A stretch of 38,636 bases of DNA from a virus. Lineage: Duplodnaviria; Caudoviricetes. A program made the translations under genes and the position numbers. The stretch lies in the IMG/VR virus record IMGVR_UViG_3300049144_000125, positions 1 through 38,636 of that record. The stretch is one strand, 5' to 3'. The notes beneath the pieces are model-generated. The model saw nothing but the letters and a program-made list of their open reading frames with translations, was not told the origin of the DNA and searched no databases. Below, one piece after another: positions 7,814-20,412 of the stretch; positions within the stretch are counted from its first letter, which is position 1; each line of letters opens with the position of its first letter.

Positions 7814-8124
7814 TCAGTGAAAGTAGATTTCCCCCCTTCCTATCAACTGAAATATCACCTCTTTCTGGTTAGCTAATGCAGTTTCAGTACCTTTTCCAAA
7901 GATAGAATCGAGTGATCCAGGGCTATGTCCTTCAGTATAAAGTGGAGCCTGTAGAATCCATGAAAGTTTGCCTTTTGCACCTTTTTTGACAGTGACAATT
8001 GCTGCTCTAGTCTTAGGTCCCCATTTTCCATCCATACTAATTTTTTATTGTATTGTTTATTAAGTTCTATTTGAAAGGCTTTGATAAGAGCTGACTTAGT
8101 TTTGGGTCCCGGAATGCCATCCAC
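7814..8124 (-). pseudogene. Phage endolysin C-terminal peptidoglycan-binding domain remnant
   Basis: Two overlapping frames (DGIPGPKTKSALIKAFQIELNKQYNKKLV / DGKWGPKTRAAIVTVKKGAKGKLSWILQAPLYTEGHSPGSLDSIFGKGTETAL) closely parallel the endolysin tail at 13602-13935. Confidence 0.88.
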
Positions 8125-8248: not shown

Positions 8249-8304
8249 TTAATACATTGACATATATTGTTCGCGTTCCCATGGGTGAACTTGTGTTCTA
8301 AACA
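8249..8304 (-). other. glnA: Prophage attachment site: detached 3' end of the glutamine synthetase gene
   Basis: Minus strand reads FRTQVHPWEREQYMSMY*, the characteristic Bacillus GlnA C-terminus, with no glnA sequence upstream of it. Confidence 0.9.
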
Positions 8305-8406: not shown

Positions 8407-8437
8407 TGTGGGTAGATTGTGGGTAAAAATGTGGGTA
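8407..8437 (+). repeat. Three direct repeats TGTGGGTA, likely integrase arm-type binding sites
   Basis: Copies at 8407, 8418 and 8430 (11-12 bp period), about 100 bp inside the att core. Confidence 0.72.
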
Positions 8438-8525: not shown

Positions 8526-9170
8526 TTATCTAACAACCCTTTTTAAGCCTCCTGAATTTACTTTTATAGGTGCAGGGATAGTTGCTTGCTTTAGGGATTG
8601 AATAAATTGTGTGAATGATTCTGCCTGGAATATTTTAAATGGATAGTCACCATCGATTGCATATCTTTGGTCTGAAAGGATTAGAACATGTGGATTGTCA
8701 GATAACACACCACTATTATATAAATCCACATATCGATCTAACTTATCGTTCATTTGCTTTTCGCTGTAAAGGGTTCTCTGTACTTCAATGAAAAAAGGTG
8801 TTTTTCTAAAGCAACAATAAATATCAGGTTCAGCTCCTTCTCCTTTTTTTCCGTACTTAGGTTCCACAAGGAATGAATGAAGATCACCAAGCTTTTTCAT
8901 TTCTTTATATACATTAACAATCGCTAAGAAATGTCCTATTTTCGCACTGTTTTGCTTCATGTGAACGTCAGGCCCAAAATAACAATAAGGTACGAATGCA
9001 GTGCTTCTCTGAATCTTACCTTCCCTTAATAATCGTAATAGAACGTTGTTAGCAGCATATCTGGGATTTTTCAAATTACTGAAATGTAATTCTGCAATCG
9101 AATTACGATCCATCACACGGAATTTATTAAGGTCCTTAATGATTGCCTTATCGCGATTAGTCAACATCAT
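8526..9170 (-). CDS. Replication-relaxation (Replic_Relax) family protein
   Basis: MLTNRDKAIIKDLNKFRVM wHTH-like start, HFLAI, EPDIY, FFIEVQ, KLDRY (PD-(D/E)xK-like relaxase motifs); overlaps the FtsK gene stop. Confidence 0.85.
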   Translation of the reverse strand: MMLTNRDKAIIKDLNKFRVMDRNSIAELHFSNLKNPRYAANNVLLRLLREGKIQRSTAFVPYCYFGPDVHMKQNSAKIGHFLAIVNVYKEMKKLGDLHSFLVEPKYGKKGEGAEPDIYCCFRKTPFFIEVQRTLYSEKQMNDKLDRYVDLYNSGVLSDNPHVLILSDQRYAIDGDYPFKIFQAESFTQFIQSLKQATIPAPIKVNSGGLKRVVR

Positions 9171-10356
9171 TAAACACATCCTTTTCGGTAATTCGTTTAC
9201 TTAATTCCATTGGATTTACAGATTCATTTTTATCCTTTGCTATCTTTTTAAAACTATGGTTTCTCCAGTATTCAGATTTATAGTTTGCTAATATTTTTTC
9301 TGTCTTATCCTCATCCAGATATGGTGCTTTAAGCTCAGTTAATTCATCTAAATTCAGCAGGAACTTTCCTGGCTCATCCTTACTGATTTTTTCACTACCT
9401 GGAGTTTCACCAATCATGGCATTGCGAAGGTCAACAGTACGAAAACCCATCCTAACCGATAAAACGCCTCTGACATCTGTACTTAGGATTTTATGTGAGG
9501 GCCTTTGCATTGAAAGTATTAAATAAATGCCGTATGCACGACCAAGTGAAGCGATTTGAAGTAAGTCTGCCACAATATCCTCATCTTTTATCATGACAAA
9601 TTCATCTATACAGAGAACAATGTAAGGTGGCTTTTTATCTGAAGATAATTTATTTATATGCCGGATTCCATTATCTTTTAATAATTTTCCTCGCCTTGTA
9701 AGTTCAGTTTTCAAATGTGATAAGGCTGGGCCCAACTCCCTGGGCAGATAACTAACGCTTTTCACATGTTTGACACTTTCGTATAAATTGAACTCCGACA
9801 TTTTAAAATCTGCCAGATATAGCTGGAGTTCATCCGGATTATACAATTGAAGCAAGGTACAAAGAATGGAATGGAGAATGGAACTTTTGCCACTACCCGG
9901 CTGACCAAAAATCAATAAGTTAGGGTTATTCGTAGCGTCATAAAGACGCAGTTTATTATGAATGTCTTTCCCCGCCACAATAGGAAAGATTATTTTTTCC
10001 TGCCCGATAACCTGCAGTATCTCTTTGAAATCGTAGGTGACTGATTTAGGTAGGCTCTTAACATAAATGGTTAGTACAAACTTCTTTAAATCTCCTTCGA
10101 TTTCAATACTTTTGCCAAAGTGCTGTTTAAAAACAAATTCTTTTTTCTTCATTTCCTTAGGATCCATTCCGTTAAGCAATGTAAAAGTATACCGCAGAGA
10201 TTTATTTTCTTTATCAAAATAGATGTCATGAATTTTAGGGAAGATGGTACGTGCACTTCCACTTTTGCTCTTGTAAGATTTATATAGTTCGGCACTTCTA
10301 AATGCCTTAATTAATTCACTTTTTGCTTTTGATTTATTAAGAAAATCTCGAATCAT
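9157..10356 (-). CDS. FtsK/SpoIIIE family ATPase without N-terminal membrane domain
   Basis: Walker A GQPGSGKS, Walker B IVLCIDE, GRAYGI, SMQRPS. Confidence 0.93.
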   Translation of the reverse strand: MIRDFLNKSKAKSELIKAFRSAELYKSYKSKSGSARTIFPKIHDIYFDKENKSLRYTFTLLNGMDPKEMKKKEFVFKQHFGKSIEIEGDLKKFVLTIYVKSLPKSVTYDFKEILQVIGQEKIIFPIVAGKDIHNKLRLYDATNNPNLLIFGQPGSGKSSILHSILCTLLQLYNPDELQLYLADFKMSEFNLYESVKHVKSVSYLPRELGPALSHLKTELTRRGKLLKDNGIRHINKLSSDKKPPYIVLCIDEFVMIKDEDIVADLLQIASLGRAYGIYLILSMQRPSHKILSTDVRGVLSVRMGFRTVDLRNAMIGETPGSEKISKDEPGKFLLNLDELTELKAPYLDEDKTEKILANYKSEYWRNHSFKKIAKDKNESVNPMELSKRITEKDVFNDVD

Positions 10357-10368
10357 ATATGCTCCCCC

Positions 10369-10701
10369 TTATAAGGAAAATAAAAACCAACCAATGAAGC
10401 TAAAACCACCTATAGAAAAGGCTAATCTTGTTATTGTTTCAATCGCATCAGCTAAAGCCTCACGCCCTGAATTGGCCGCGGCCGTTTCTAAACAATGAGA
10501 TAACATACCAAATATCCCAACACCAATAACTACTGCATACAGGCCAGCAATCTCAGGTGACATATTAAAAAAGCTACTCACAGTAATTGATGGCATAAAT
10601 CCGTATATACTGTTATTAATGAGACTCTTCGACTGCTTAACGCGCTTCCCCGCCAGGAACGTTTTAAAGTCGATGGTCTCTATTTTTTGTTTTCTGAACA
10701 T
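10369..10701 (-). CDS. Small two-TM membrane protein, first gene of the FtsK/relaxase operon
   Basis: RBS GGAGGTG 8 nt before ATG 10701; two hydrophobic helices in the C-terminal half. Confidence 0.8.
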   Translation of the reverse strand: MFRKQKIETIDFKTFLAGKRVKQSKSLINNSIYGFMPSITVSSFFNMSPEIAGLYAVVIGVGIFGMLSHCLETAAANSGREALADAIETITRLAFSIGGFSFIGWFLFSL

Positions 10702-10969
10702 TTTGCTCACCTCCCAAAAGTTTTTTTATTTTTTTCATGATTTCATGTATTAATCATTACTCAAATGGGCACCGGTCGTTTTCCCTTCACTTCGTTCCGC
10801 CACTCTCCTTTAACAGATTTTGTTTTTGTTGTTGTACTTGCTTTATACCTTGTTCAAGTGCACTTACTCAAATCAGTTGAAACTGTTACGGAAGTGAAAA
10901 TTAAAACATCCGAATTCATTACGCAACTGTTTTGCTGCTGTTTATCAACTGTGTAGGATTCATGTTAAT

Positions 10970-10997
10970 AGCCTATGACGATGCGAAGTTTTATTGC
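10970..10997 (-). promoter_or_regulatory. Candidate sigmaE-type (mother-cell sporulation) promoter
   Basis: Minus strand GCAATA-N14-CATAGGCT resembles the B. subtilis sigmaE consensus (ATA...N14...CATAcaaT). Confidence 0.45.
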
Positions 10998-11044
10998 CTG
11001 TCTTAAGAAGTTTTTTTATCAATTAACGGAAATAAAGTTTTCAT

Positions 11045-11090: not shown

Positions 11091-11288
11091 ATGAAATGTA
11101 ACATTGAAAAGTTAATCAAAGATCGTGGTTTAAAGAAGGGATTCATTGCAGAAAAGTTAGAGATCTCCCCTAAACAATTAAGGAATTATGAAACCGGGGA
11201 AAGTTACATCCCAATACCTAAAGCCTATAAATTGGCTAAATTATTAGGTGTGAAGGTCGATGATTTATATGAGGAGGAAGATAATTGA
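11091..11288 (+). CDS. XRE/Cro family HTH transcriptional regulator
   Basis: IAEKLEISPKQLRNYETG...P.IPKAYKLAKLLGVKVDDLY. Confidence 0.92.
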   Translation: MKCNIEKLIKDRGLKKGFIAEKLEISPKQLRNYETGESYIPIPKAYKLAKLLGVKVDDLYEEEDN

Positions 11289-12125: not shown

Positions 12126-12863
12126 ATGGGGGATAATCCGAATGATGAACTTAGACGACAAATACAAAATATAATGGGACCTTTTCAACAAATGCAAAGT
12201 AAAATGCAAAGTATGAATAGTCAAATGGCTGCACCTTTACGTCAAATGCAAAGTAAAATGCAAAGCATGAATAGTCAAATGGCTGCACCTTTACGTCAAA
12301 TGCAAATTTCCTTGGATCATCTAAGAAGATCAGGTGCATTTTTCTCTAGAGAAGAACTTTCAAAAATGTTAAATGAAAATAGTGCTTTAATTTCTCATAT
12401 GACTTTATATAAAAATATTTTAGATACGATTGATGAAGAATCTTTTGAGAGAATTCAAGATGTATTTGAAGAGGAACTTCACGATGTATTTGAAGAGGAA
12501 CTTCATAATGAAGAAAATAATTCTTTGGAAGAAGAAATCAAAATTGTTTATCCTTCTTTTTATAATGCAGGGGTTACTATTAATACGTATGTACTAGTGA
12601 CAGATAATCAAATAAATACTAATAAGGATATAAGTGCAGAAGAAAGAAGCGTTTGGGAGAAGCGAATTAAACCTGCTTTAATCTTGATAGGTAATTTGTT
12701 TATGATTTGGGCTACAAGTAATACCCCTATAAAGGAATGGAATATTTTTGAACCTTTTCAAAAGGTTGCAAACATAATTGAAAATTATGAGTATCCTTTA
12801 GAAACAACCGATATTGAAATAGACTACCCGACTGATATTAAAGATAATGAAAAAAATGAGTAA
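12126..12863 (+). CDS. Hypothetical acidic protein with internal tandem duplications
   Basis: RBS AGGAGA; 245 aa; 18-aa and 8-aa in-frame repeats. Confidence 0.78.
   Translation: MGDNPNDELRRQIQNIMGPFQQMQSKMQSMNSQMAAPLRQMQSKMQSMNSQMAAPLRQMQISLDHLRRSGAFFSREELSKMLNENSALISHMTLYKNILDTIDEESFERIQDVFEEELHDVFEEELHNEENNSLEEEIKIVYPSFYNAGVTINTYVLVTDNQINTNKDISAEERSVWEKRIKPALILIGNLFMIWATSNTPIKEWNIFEPFQKVANIIENYEYPLETTDIEIDYPTDIKDNEKNE
12189..12306 (+). repeat. 54-bp in-frame tandem repeat (2.2 copies)
   Basis: Units start at 12189, 12243 and 12297 (partial); one mismatch between the full units; encodes QMQSKMQSMNSQMAAPLR. Confidence 0.95.
12459..12506 (+). repeat. 24-bp in-frame tandem repeat (2 copies)
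   Basis: GATGTATTTGAAGAGGAACTTCAY x2, encoding DVFEEELH. Confidence 0.95.
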
Positions 12864-13601: not shown

Positions 13602-14578
13602 TTATGCTGCAAACAATTTGGTGAAAGTAGCTTTACCTGCCTTCTTATCTGCAGTAATCTTTCTAGCCTTCTGGAACTTATATAACGCTGACTCTGTGGC
13701 TTTACCAAAGTCAGAATCAAGTGATCCAGGATTTAACCCTTCAGTGTAAAGTGCAGCCTGTAGAATCCAAGTAAGATTACCTTTTGCGCCTTTTTCAACA
13801 GTAACGATGGCAGCCTTTGTTTTAGCTCCCCATTTACCGTCCACAACTAGTTTTTTATTAAACTGCTTATTAAGTTCCGTTTGTAGAGCTTTGATCAGTG
13901 CTGTTTGAGTTTTCTGTCCATTAATTCCGTCCACAACAAGATCAGTATCATAACGGCTGTTTAATGTTTTTTGAATGGACCTAATTGTTTCGTCACCTTT
14001 GTTCTTGGATGGCTCCTTAGTGACCTCTGCAGCAACCTCAGTCTTTGGAGGAACAGTAACAATGGTTTCAGTTTCATTCTCGAATTTCAATGAAAGACTT
14101 GGCTTTTTACCTGATTGCATCTGTGAGTAGGATAGCCCACCCGTCATTTCCAAGTGTGGATAGTCTTTAAATCCGGACCAATCTCCACCCCATTTAAATC
14201 CTAACTCCTTGCCAATAGCTGCAACCCTTCTCCATTTCGTATTGATAGTCCACAAGGCGGTTTTTCCGTCATCGCTAACAATGAAGAAGTCAACGGCAAC
14301 CCCAAAGTTATGAAAGGTTGCCCTGGCTTAGCATTTGTCACTTTTGCTTTTGCTAGATTGCTATAATTTTTCCCGCGGTAGCTATAATATAGACGCCCTT
14401 GTCCGTACAATGCAGCCTGTTCTTCCATAGACCGATAACCTGCACTTATTTGAGCGTAAATACCTTCTTTATATGCACGTTTAATCATTTCTAAAGCTGA
14501 TGCCTTCACAACTGTATTCATGCCAGAACCCATATTTTTAACTGAACGATCCAATAAAGTTTGCAATGCTACTATCAT
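13602..14578 (-). pseudogene. Endolysin, M15-family L-Ala-D-Glu peptidase with peptidoglycan-binding domains, split by a 1-bp deletion
   Basis: YRSMEEQAALYGQGR...VTNAKPGQ in one frame; FHNFGVAVDFF...WGGDW..FKDYPHLEM in the next. Restoring one base between 14317 and 14318 gives GQSFHNFG. Confidence 0.9.
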
Positions 14579-18357: not shown

Positions 18358-18534
18358 AATATCCCCCCCATAAACATAAAAAAAAACACCGCAAAAGGTT
18401 GTTTTTTTTATCTACCGCACAGTTTGTTCCTACACAGTTCAATTCGTGATTGAACATTTTCACCTCAAAAAATTCAGATATCAAAATTTATACATTTACT
18501 GGTATAATTGTTGATATCTGAAAGGAGATGCAAT

Positions 18535-19146
18535 ATGCAATACACTCAATCTTACGATGAATTAATTGAACATTTAAAAGATCAAATTTATTTCCTTAAA
18601 AACTCATGCACTTCATATGATAATGGATTCAAAAAAGAAGCAAAAAGATTAGCTGTAACTATCCGAACACTCGTTCATGATACTACAAGATCAATAAGTT
18701 TACTAACTCACTTATCCAGAAAAAATATTGATTTTTATAATACATCACTACCTTTTGACGAAGAAAATCTATCACCTTTTACAGGATTAACTGGTATACG
18801 CTCGTCGTCTGAAGGTATAGAACATTGGCCTTTTTTAGATGATGGACATCCAAGTCGATATGCTAATCCTTGGATAAAATTTGATGATTGGTGGAACAGT
18901 GTAGTAATTAATGACCATAAGAATCAGTTTACAAGAAAAAAATTAGTTTTAGCTGTAGCTAACCAAGATGGTGGTGCACATGTTGATTCTAAACTTGACC
19001 ATGGGTATTCAAATTTAACTAAAAACAACTCCGTTTCTTGGACGTATGAAGAACCAATAAATCAAATAGAACTAGCTTCTCTAAGACAAATTGCACATGA
19101 AGTTTTAAAAACACTTGAAAAAGAATTTCCGTCATTAACTAACTAA
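18535..19146 (+). CDS. Hypothetical moron protein with ANQDGGAHVD motif (possibly HEPN-like)
   Basis: Extended -10 TGGTATAAT (18500-18508), RBS AAAGGAG, ATG 18535; opposite strand to the tail genes. Confidence 0.75.
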   Translation: MQYTQSYDELIEHLKDQIYFLKNSCTSYDNGFKKEAKRLAVTIRTLVHDTTRSISLLTHLSRKNIDFYNTSLPFDEENLSPFTGLTGIRSSSEGIEHWPFLDDGHPSRYANPWIKFDDWWNSVVINDHKNQFTRKKLVLAVANQDGGAHVDSKLDHGYSNLTKNNSVSWTYEEPINQIELASLRQIAHEVLKTLEKEFPSLTN

Positions 19147-19350
19147 AAGGAGCCTCAATATAGGGCTATGTCTTTTTGTTAATCAAGTATAAAAAATATA
19201 TCTCATTGCTACACAATATGTTCCGAATGAGGAATACCCCTACGATTTTCCTAGATAGGTCACCTTCTTTAATAAGATTGTTATTGACGCACCATTTATT
19301 AACATTTAACCTATATATATCAAACATATATTCTGAAGGGACGTAGTACT

Positions 19351-20412
19351 TTGAAAAGACAATTAGATTCAATTGAAACATTAAGGGGAATAGCAGCAAT
19401 ATTAGTATTATTACATCACACTACTAGGATTTTTGTTAAGGATTATAATACAGAATTCTTGCATGGTTTTTTTAATCCAGGGTATTTAGGTGTTGATGTT
19501 TTCTTTGTTCTAAGTGGGTTTATCATCTTTTACATACACAAATCCGATATTGGTAAACCAGATAAACTAAAACCTTTCGTTTTAAAACGAGTTATTAGAG
19601 TCTACCCAGTTTATTGGATAATTGCACTTACCTTAATACCTATTTATCTGGCAGTTCCGTCATTTGGAGAACCACACTACAGCGACCCTGTTTATTTAAT
19701 TAAGTCTCTACTATTAATACCTCAAGAACTCCAACCTATATTAGGGGTTGCTTGGTCTTTAACACACGAAATGTTTTTTTACTTAGTTTTTGCACTTTTA
19801 ATTTTCATAAAACCTAAGTACACTTTCCCAGTAGTCGTTTCTTGGATGTTAATAACTTTTGTCATGCTTTTTATAAACCCTTTTGAAGAATTCTTATTTA
19901 TAAACTTTATTTTTAGTGAGTATAATATTGAATTTTTATTAGGTTGTAGTGTTGCTTATATTTTTTCAAAAAGAAAAATTTCAGGATCACTTCCATTAAC
20001 AATAGGTATAATAAGCTTTTTTACTTTTTGGGTTTTAAATGAATATTTCTCCTTCGAAATTAGTCGAATTATCATGGGTGGACTTCCTGCTGCATTAATG
20101 ATTTTAGGCTGTGCTAATTTAGATTTTACAAGAAAGCCAAATATTAGCCCTATATTTAAATATCTTGGTAGTGCCTCATATTCCATTTATTTGACCCATC
20201 CTATCTTTTTGGCTGCTTCTGTAAAGATTGTAGGTCCATTAAATTTATTTAACCTTTTAGGGATTTTTACGATACCTGTTATAGCGTTACTTGCTATTGT
20301 TGCCGGATGTATCTTCCACTCTATCATTGAAAAGCCAATTTTGAATTACTGCAGAAAAAGGTTTCTTCCTTCAAGAAAAACCACACATCACGAGACAAAA
20401 GCAGTAATATAA
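19351..20412 (+). CDS. Acyltransferase family 3 (OafA/YrhL-like O-acyltransferase)
   Basis: LRGIAAILVLLHH, GVDVFFVLSGFII, KRVIRVYPVYW, AWSLTHEMFFY, LGSASYSIYLTH, IEKP; about 10 TM. Confidence 0.95.
   Translation: MKRQLDSIETLRGIAAILVLLHHTTRIFVKDYNTEFLHGFFNPGYLGVDVFFVLSGFIIFYIHKSDIGKPDKLKPFVLKRVIRVYPVYWIIALTLIPIYLAVPSFGEPHYSDPVYLIKSLLLIPQELQPILGVAWSLTHEMFFYLVFALLIFIKPKYTFPVVVSWMLITFVMLFINPFEEFLFINFIFSEYNIEFLLGCSVAYIFSKRKISGSLPLTIGIISFFTFWVLNEYFSFEISRIIMGGLPAALMILGCANLDFTRKPNISPIFKYLGSASYSIYLTHPIFLAASVKIVGPLNLFNLLGIFTIPVIALLAIVAGCIFHSIIEKPILNYCRKRFLPSRKTTHHETKAVI

Follow-up and report, generated by a model that had tools for sequence, protein, structure and literature searches.

The 38,636-nucleotide (nt) stretch of Caudoviricetes DNA in record IMGVR_UViG_3300049144_000125, referred to here as the window, carries on its minus strand the late half of a prophage of siphovirus type, with genes for terminase, portal, capsid, tail and holin and a split endolysin. 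Past the lysin come accessory genes, a divergent gene for a small XRE regulator and an operon of three genes which, with its upstream region, is the subject of this analysis. We find this cassette to be one copy of a portable three-gene module of phages and plasmids of endospore-forming bacteria, predicted from its sequence to be transcribed by sigmaE polymerase under the control of SpoIIID. The elements of the cassette, in the order in which they would be transcribed, are as follows.

10996..11005, minus strand: SpoIIID-type box TAAGACAGGC of the distal class, 18 nt before the -10 element and perfect against the SpoIIID consensus
10991..10997, minus strand: -35 position GCAATAA, with a 13-nt spacer, overlapping the SpoIIID-type box
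10970..10977, minus strand: -10 element CATAGGCT, of the sigmaE/sigmaK type (cATAnnnT)
10810..10969, minus strand: leader, a candidate cis-acting site, ending in the conserved AAAT(C/T)TGTT(A/T)A (10820-10810)
10369..10701, minus strand: gene 1, small two-helix membrane protein of 110 amino acids (aa) with two hydrophobic stretches
9157..10356, minus strand: gene 2, TcpA/FtsK-type ATPase consisting of motor domains only (PF01580, E 1.6e-26)
8526..9170, minus strand: gene 3, protein with a winged helix (residues 1-70) and a PD-(D/E)XK nuclease fold, of the Replic_Relax/MOBC type (PF13814)

A 12-nt gap separates genes 1 and 2; the reading frames of genes 2 and 3 overlap over 14 nt. The open reading frames (ORFs), Pfam matches and hydropathy bear out an earlier, sequence-only reading of this DNA, which had described three tightly linked minus-strand genes for a protein with two transmembrane segments, an FtsK ATPase without a membrane domain and a Replic_Relax protein. 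That reading had further noted a relaxase-like protein, a coupling-type pump and a membrane protein standing together in a window free of VirB4 and mating-pair genes, and this anatomy holds, as the 43 window ORFs scanned gave no match to VirB4 or to any mating-pair family. No other P-loop ORF of at least 450 aa occurs within the 68 related loci described below (mostly 5-kilobase (kb) flanks).

Relatives of the cassette were assembled as 140 loci, comprising the window and 139 fetched loci, many of them redundant; 115 yielded all three genes by an automatic rule. Enough upstream DNA was present in 127 loci, which gave 68 non-redundant upstream regions. Conserved in these regions is a pair of elements, a SpoIIID-type box TTGGACAAGC placed before a -10 of the sigmaE/sigmaK type. 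Gibbs sampling of these regions without a seed gave aTTGgACAAgC...cATA.g.T in one run; other runs gave the motif that ends the leader, AAAT(C/T)TGTT(A/T)A. When spacings were scanned, RRACAR-N9-MATAnnnT was present in 21 of the 68 upstream regions, compared with 0, 1 and 0 in the reverse-strand, FtsK-coding and downstream controls, and a second peak appeared at N21 (4 loci) and N22 (8 loci; controls 0). A leave-one-out matrix for the near box was significant in 42 of the 68 regions. The position of the box was counted in the 47 loci with a placeable -10, allowing at most one mismatch to the 10-letter SpoIIID consensus: it precedes the -10 by 7 nt in 27 of these and by 18-20 nt in 11, with the window among the latter.

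The motif is also found outside the set from which it was derived. A held-out set was taken from the scan of Bacilli genomes described below (20 of 42 places, mostly weak distant matches, with an FtsK gene in 18), and here the matrix was significant at 9 of 18 loci compared with 1 of 18 reverse-strand controls. Two of three further plasmid loci score with the matrix, the third having a distal box by eye; among five loci from a phylum-level scan one scores, and one more has a distal match to the regular expression.

Table S2 of PMC517825 gives the sigmaE consensus as TCATATT-13/15-CATANANT and includes TTGGACAAAC, TAGAACAAGC and AGGGACAAGC among footprinted SpoIIID sites. The cassette has the same box and -10 as the spoIVCA and sigK promoters of Bacillus subtilis, which depend on sigmaE and SpoIIID and have a 15-nt spacing between -35 and -10; in the table, the SpoIIID-activated spoIVCA promoter reads TCATTTG-15-CATAGCAT with TTGGACAAAC as its footprinted box. 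The difference lies in the placing of the box, whose distance to the -10 is 7 nt (or 18-20 nt) in the cassette and 8-9 nt in the B. subtilis promoters (about 8 nt for spoIVCA and 9 nt for sigK, by our reading of the coordinates in PMC517825). Judged by these upstream elements, the cassette is very probably transcribed in the mother cell. As the polymerase factor, sigmaE seems more likely than sigmaK, and SpoIIID could repress the cassette rather than activate it.

The sequence-only reading had placed a sigmaE-like sporulation promoter at GCAATA-N14-CATAGGCT and proposed that the upstream regions of homologous operons be aligned for a sigmaE motif. The string is present at 10997-10970, and alignment upholds a conserved cATAnnnT -10 element; what is conserved with it, however, is the SpoIIID-type box and not GCAATA. 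Only 2 of 7 positions in the -35 of the window agree with TCATATT, the consensus for sigmaE, and the exact string was rejected as a conserved motif, occurring in 0 of 189 fetched loci. Moreover, the box and -10 pattern has one match in the window against 0.32 expected, a level reached in 27 of 100 shuffles. This is within chance; the case for the promoter is made by conservation across relatives and not by the window.

That chance-level match, and an XRE gene lying divergently upstream in 49 of the 68 loci, would suit a different explanation, namely that the motif is not a sporulation promoter but, for example, an XRE operator or a binding site for the gene 3 protein, with the cassette acting in growing cells. 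We consider this highly improbable. The motif has two parts at a fixed spacing that match published sigmaE and SpoIIID sites, a -35 with at least 5 of 7 consensus matches accompanies it in 12 of the 47 loci, and it is retained where XRE is absent. In particular, the XRE homologue is missing upstream of the cassette in both phi29-like phages, yet each retains a box and a -10, and this speaks for a host factor. In loci L140 and L142, the best promoter-like site stands before an adaptor-like gene.

The distribution of the cassette was examined through gene 3, which is matched in 26 of 50,697 phage records and 350 of 72,556 plasmid records. The phage carriers are siphophages and phi29-like phages, and 23 of the 26 records are named for Bacillaceae. 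The exceptions, two records of Staphylococcus SpaA1 and one of Stenotrophomonas, are probably B. cereus-group sequence because their scores equal those of B. cereus-group phages. Every organism name listed for the carrier plasmids belongs to the Bacillales, two names standing outside that list, and typing classes 228 of the 350 plasmids as non-mobilizable and 122 as mobilizable or conjugative. The order small protein, FtsK, relaxase is found in all ten annotated regions, among them those of DLc1 and Bfsp1, which are phi29-like phages, and that of a plasmid having MOBQ and mating-pair formation (MPF) genes besides. Where a plasmid brings a MOBQ or MOBP relaxase and MPF genes of its own, the cassette is a separate module. 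It is carried by many B. cereus-group and Priestia plasmids of 50-480 kb; on the 209-kb plasmid pBCX01 (L190, 6991-9612) its promoter is intact and gene 1 is annotated as split. ParM-like actin genes adjoin or directly precede the cassette in L143 (1510-2370), L144 (1881-2890), L012 and L013, the one in L144 having a small adaptor-like gene beside it. Of 20 distant loci, 2 have ParM-like genes immediately upstream.

In a sample of 401 Bacilli genomes, 267 with spoIIID and 134 without, the gene 3 profile matched 36, of which 35 have spoIIID and one lacks it (Fisher p 8e-6, ignoring kinship). Strong matches number 15 with spoIIID and 0 without (p 0.003, again ignoring kinship), and the sole carrier lacking spoIIID has a partial match (E 5e-9). 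Rep_trans, a MOBT family used as a control, was found in 36 genomes of the same sample, 7 with spoIIID and 29 without; as it skews towards genomes lacking spoIIID, non-spore-formers evidently do carry relaxases, just not those of the gene 3 type. In the phylum-level scan, 8 of 401 genomes matched gene 3; six were new carriers, and spoIIID is present in all five that were checked. The restriction of the module to spore-formers, which the sequence-only reading had put forward for checking, is therefore borne out in the sampled genomes.

The gene cluster itself is already known; what is new here is its promoter. As FtsK/SpoIIIE and Replic_Relax genes, with a membrane or TrbC/VirB2 gene in some cases, the cluster is in print from annotation on the Bacillus phages DLc1 (PMC7695010), Novomoskovsk and Bolokhovo (PMC9658697) and RBClin15 (PMC11526630), in agreement with the earlier remark that pairs of FtsK and Replic_Relax genes occur in temperate Bacillus phages without a settled function. 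The available parts of these papers assign the cluster to plasmid replication or segregation or leave its role open, and mention no mother-cell promoter, SpoIIID box or restriction to spore-formers. No paper linking the cassette to sporulation control was found in the open-access literature, nor were expression data on it found in PMC12700454 with its supplements.

An assignment to replication or segregation could be reconciled with mother-cell expression if gene 3 initiated or resolved replication and the pump tethered the element at the septum, with no membrane being crossed. Consistent with this, PHROG 2190 bears the label replication initiation, annotation links the family to the replication and relaxation of plasmids (PMC3424549), such genes are placed with plasmid segregation systems (in the available parts of PMC9658697 and PMC11526630), and there are ParM-like neighbours and iteron-like repeats in the leader. 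These labels are, however, annotations and not tests. Replication in a lysing cell would be of little value unless the DNA leaves it, and capture at the septum would require expression before sigmaE is active; furthermore, in the phi29-like phage DLc1 the cassette is an insertion, missing from the relatives of that phage (PMC7695010). On balance we judge an aid of this kind to be distinctly unlikely.

The product of gene 2 has Walker A (GQPGSGKS), Walker B (DE251-252), R273 and QRP intact. Its AlphaFold2 (AF2) model has a predicted local distance difference test (pLDDT) score of 91, and in fold it comes closest to TcpA (E 1.8e-24) and to the FtsK motor on double-stranded DNA (template-modelling score 0.67), with EccC and HerA well behind. 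No transmembrane segment was found by hydropathy scan or in the AF2 model. The gamma domain is absent, and the C-terminal tail comprises only about 35 residues, modelled with low confidence.

Gene 3 scores just above the cut-off for PF13814 (26.8 bits compared with 25.3). The AF2 model (pLDDT 94) consists of a winged helix, matched with Z about 9 and a root-mean-square deviation (rmsd) of 1.5-3 over 60-70 residues, followed by a restriction-type nuclease fold. The nuclease part, residues 79-195, is matched by AF1548 and by a repair endonuclease of Pyrococcus (Z 8.7, rmsd 2.9-4.1 over about 100 aligned residues). No solved relative was found by sequence, and Foldseek gave no match at E 0.001 or better. 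Among 89 homologues Glu129 is invariant, and His80, Glu103, Pro115-Asp116, Gln131, Lys143 and Tyr147 are each retained by 90% or more; the acidic residues and K..RY that go with the fold are conserved. In L137 (4128-5384), on a plasmid of B. toyonensis, the motor of FtsK and the nuclease half of the relaxase have been joined by an in-frame deletion, probably a degenerate copy.

Comparison with known systems places the predicted parts of the cassette among those of DNA-moving modules. It resembles the MOBC relaxases, TraX of pAD1 and MobC of CloDF13, in its PF13814 domain, its restriction-nuclease-type fold and, in many relatives, the repeats in a candidate cis site, and differs from them in the TcpA/FtsK-type ATPase that takes the place of VirD4, in lacking a type IV secretion system (T4SS) and in its sporulation-type promoter. 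In the available part of PMC5357655, PF13814 is scored as MobC, and streptococcal MobC occurs only with VirD4 and never with TcpA, so that the pairing seen here is unusual; the partner of gene 3 is not a VirD4-type coupling protein, gene 2 being a PF01580 protein nearest to TcpA and FtsK. TcpA of pCW3 and of mobilizable elements is the top structural match of gene 2, but the window subtype lacks the N-terminal membrane domain, is accompanied by no Tcp channel genes and is paired with another class of relaxase. SpoIIIE and Streptomyces TraB are, like gene 2, FtsK-family pumps, and they move double-stranded DNA between compartments without a T4SS. Each combines membrane and DNA-reading gamma domains in one chain, whereas in the cassette these roles would be divided over three genes, with a nuclease added. 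By its predicted parts we class the cassette with the TcpA/MOBC-type DNA-moving modules.

The pairing of an ATPase with a PD-(D/E)XK nuclease is also a common design in defence, and the cassette lies in an accessory region between the lysin and the phage attachment (att) site. It might accordingly be an effector of the HerA/NurA or DUF4297-HerA kind, a translocase-nuclease that destroys rival DNA in the mother cell or alters the timing of sporulation. PADLOC gives generic ATPase matches for gene 2 and generic helix-turn-helix matches, with no system-specific profiles, and HerA does appear among the lower-ranked fold matches. There are, however, no PADLOC matches for genes 1 and 3, the ATPase is far nearer to TcpA/FtsK (E 1e-24) than to HerA (6e-8), and the winged helix and repeat-bearing leader suggest action in cis. 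An effector role thus appears very unlikely.

The leader, measured from the -10 to the first ribosome-binding site, is 90-215 nt long. Repeats exceed those of mononucleotide shuffles in 26 of 39 leaders, compared with 1 and 1 in the controls, and are lineage-specific. TraX binds direct repeats that lie 70-120 base pairs (bp) from its own nic site (PMC12857230), and by analogy it is plausible that the leader combines binding repeats with a nic site. A generally folded leader was rejected, the median RNA z being -0.5, with values below -2 in 8 of 47 leaders and +0.4 in the window. In some B. cereus-group copies (L007, L082, L118), a small Cys-rich ORF lies between the leader and gene 1.

For gene 1 we found no Pfam family and no meaningful match in the PDB, and none of 43 members of its family matches the TrbC/VirB2 pilin families in Pfam. 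Co-folding of the gene 2 ATPase with gene 1 returned a score of 0.00 and no verdict, and is counted neither for nor against binding. The membrane partner is exchangeable. In one distant subtype, a TrbC/VirB2-like protein follows the relaxase, with sub-threshold TrbC/T4SS_pilin matches in 7 of 7 cases; it has only an N-terminal peptide in common with gene 1 (E.I.F..F motif; hhalign 92%, 25 columns). Another distant subtype has one or two short two-helix proteins (L207, 3917-4400; L208, 4067-4396; L147) that resemble SpoIIIAC/AD (PF06686). The Pfam E-values are 0.29 and 0.87 over 56 and 47 of 56 positions, and hhalign gives 66% for six hand-picked proteins; in the Atlas comparison they reach 0.86-0.87 by features and the SpoIIIAC clusters form the top three structure rows, all of them under the bar. 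We treat the SpoIIIAC likeness of these partners as a lead only, and any resemblance of the core of gene 1 to SpoIIIAC as weak and unproven. In L210, the cassette operon includes a membrane-anchored protein with an M23 peptidase domain.

The SpoIIIA proteins form the mother-cell side of a channel to the forespore (PMC7780723), and the SpoIIIAC lead suggests a specific route. A TcpA-like pump driven by SpoIIID and sigmaE might plug into the SpoIIIA-SpoIIQ channel through a SpoIIIAC-like subunit and, once septation is past, inject the DNA of the plasmid or phage into the forespore. As stated, with that channel and that subunit, we think this unlikely; were it true, the cassette would be a private spore-entry system, a form of conjugation between the two cells of one sporangium.

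The pilin-like partners lead in another direction. A MOBC-like relaxase and a TcpA-like coupling protein, expressed at the time of sporulation, could export the element to neighbouring cells before the mother cell lyses, using the conjugation channel of a helper or acting alone in the manner of TraB. Besides the sub-threshold pilin matches of the seven distant third genes and the 122 carrier plasmids typed as mobilizable or conjugative, this would accord with the scoring of PF13814 as MobC, with the finding that mobilizable elements having TcpA but no mating pore are common in streptococci (PMC5357655) and with the binding of TraX to direct repeats away from its nic site, an arrangement resembling the cassette leader (PMC12857230). 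It leaves unexplained, however, why the cassette is absent from non-spore-formers, which carry other relaxases freely. Where a plasmid has a relaxase and MPF already, the cassette would also be redundant; phi29-like phages carry it too, and gene 1 of the window has no pilin match. Mobilisation to neighbours therefore seems to us doubtful.

What we propose instead, with about even confidence, is that the cassette pumps the DNA of its element from the mother cell into the forespore. The promoter would fire in the mother cell after polar septation. The winged helix of gene 3 would then bind the leader repeats, substituting for the absent gamma domain of FtsK, while its nuclease domain would nick or cut close by. 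Gene 1 would recruit the gene 2 hexamer to the membrane facing the forespore, and the DNA would cross, possibly by way of the septal machinery of the host or of SpoIIIA-SpoIIQ. Copies that miss the forespore, be they low-copy plasmids, excised prophage or phage DNA entering a sporulating cell, would in this way be inherited through the spore. The forespore is preferred as the destination because the mother cell lyses, because most carriers are low-copy plasmids or phages, with free DNA that could be left out of the forespore, and because the cassette is independent of conjugation genes and confined to spore-formers.

Several observations weigh against delivery to the forespore or against the promoter from which it starts. 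An integrated prophage already enters the spore with the chromosome, so that in the window the benefit must come from excised or newly infecting copies. The cassette encodes no forespore-side or wall-crossing part. SigmaE acts only after the septum has formed, and assembly of SpoIIIE needs DNA already trapped in the septum (PMC7780723). The VirB2/TrbC-like partner in seven distant cassettes points to cell-to-cell transfer. Gene 1 of the window reaches only 7% with SpoIIIAC in hhalign, a level attained by 3 of 40 shuffles, its Atlas rows are under the bar, and across the family SpoIIIAC likeness is not enriched over other two-helix proteins (p 0.51). In the leader of the window the repeat excess is not significant (p 0.12), and leader similarity tracks the winged helix and FtsK about alike (partial r 0.30 and 0.26). 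As to the promoter, the near-box matrix is not significant in 26 of the 68 loci, fails at 9 of the 18 held-out loci and leaves the window itself unscored (p 0.65), in addition to the poor -35 there; and where SpoIIID boxes overlap a promoter, repression is the more frequent outcome (PMC517825).

The routes known to bring low-copy plasmids and non-integrated phage genomes into the small forespore act before or at septation. Expressed in the mother cell, a cassette as widespread as this one would offer a route that is both active and late. Such delivery would explain why this gene cluster recurs on hundreds of Bacillales plasmids and phages, and might also reveal passage of DNA through the channel between mother cell and forespore. 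The promoter and the catalytic residues make the proposal testable with standard B. subtilis genetics.

The remaining features concern the end of the prophage and the rest of the window.

8249..8302, minus strand: att-like core and displaced glnA 3' end, which translates as a glutamine-synthetase C-terminus
8407..8437, minus strand: three TACCCACA repeats between the operon and the att-like site, outside the cassette at the prophage end
11091..11288, plus strand: the divergent small XRE regulator

The att-like site (8302-8249) matches the 3' end of the full-length glnA in a related genome, and the TACCCACA repeats are likely to be integrase arm sites. The site is termed att by inference, as neither an integrase nor a second att was found in the 38.6-kb record. 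Its distance from the last stop codon of the operon is 224 bp, in keeping with the figure of about 220 bp in the sequence-only reading. That reading had pointed to this closeness and to excised phage DNA; neither is supported as a special feature, since the cassette is also found on large plasmids and on linear phi29-like phages; these contexts rule out closeness to att as essential. Just past the att-like site, a relic of a second endolysin (7814-8124, minus strand; PG_binding_1) suggests an older prophage at the same glnA site.

The endolysin (13602-14578, minus strand) is split over two overlapping frames, a VanY part and an M15_4 tail with a peptidoglycan-binding part, from which the prophage may be lysis-defective, unless the split is a read error. 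An acyltransferase gene (PF01757) and a phrog_7805 gene, inserted at 18508-20412 on the plus strand against the direction of the tail module, form a possible surface-modification moron. At 12126-12863 on the plus strand, a 245-aa accessory protein of no confident family contains a tandem Met/Gln-rich repeat and an acidic repeat.

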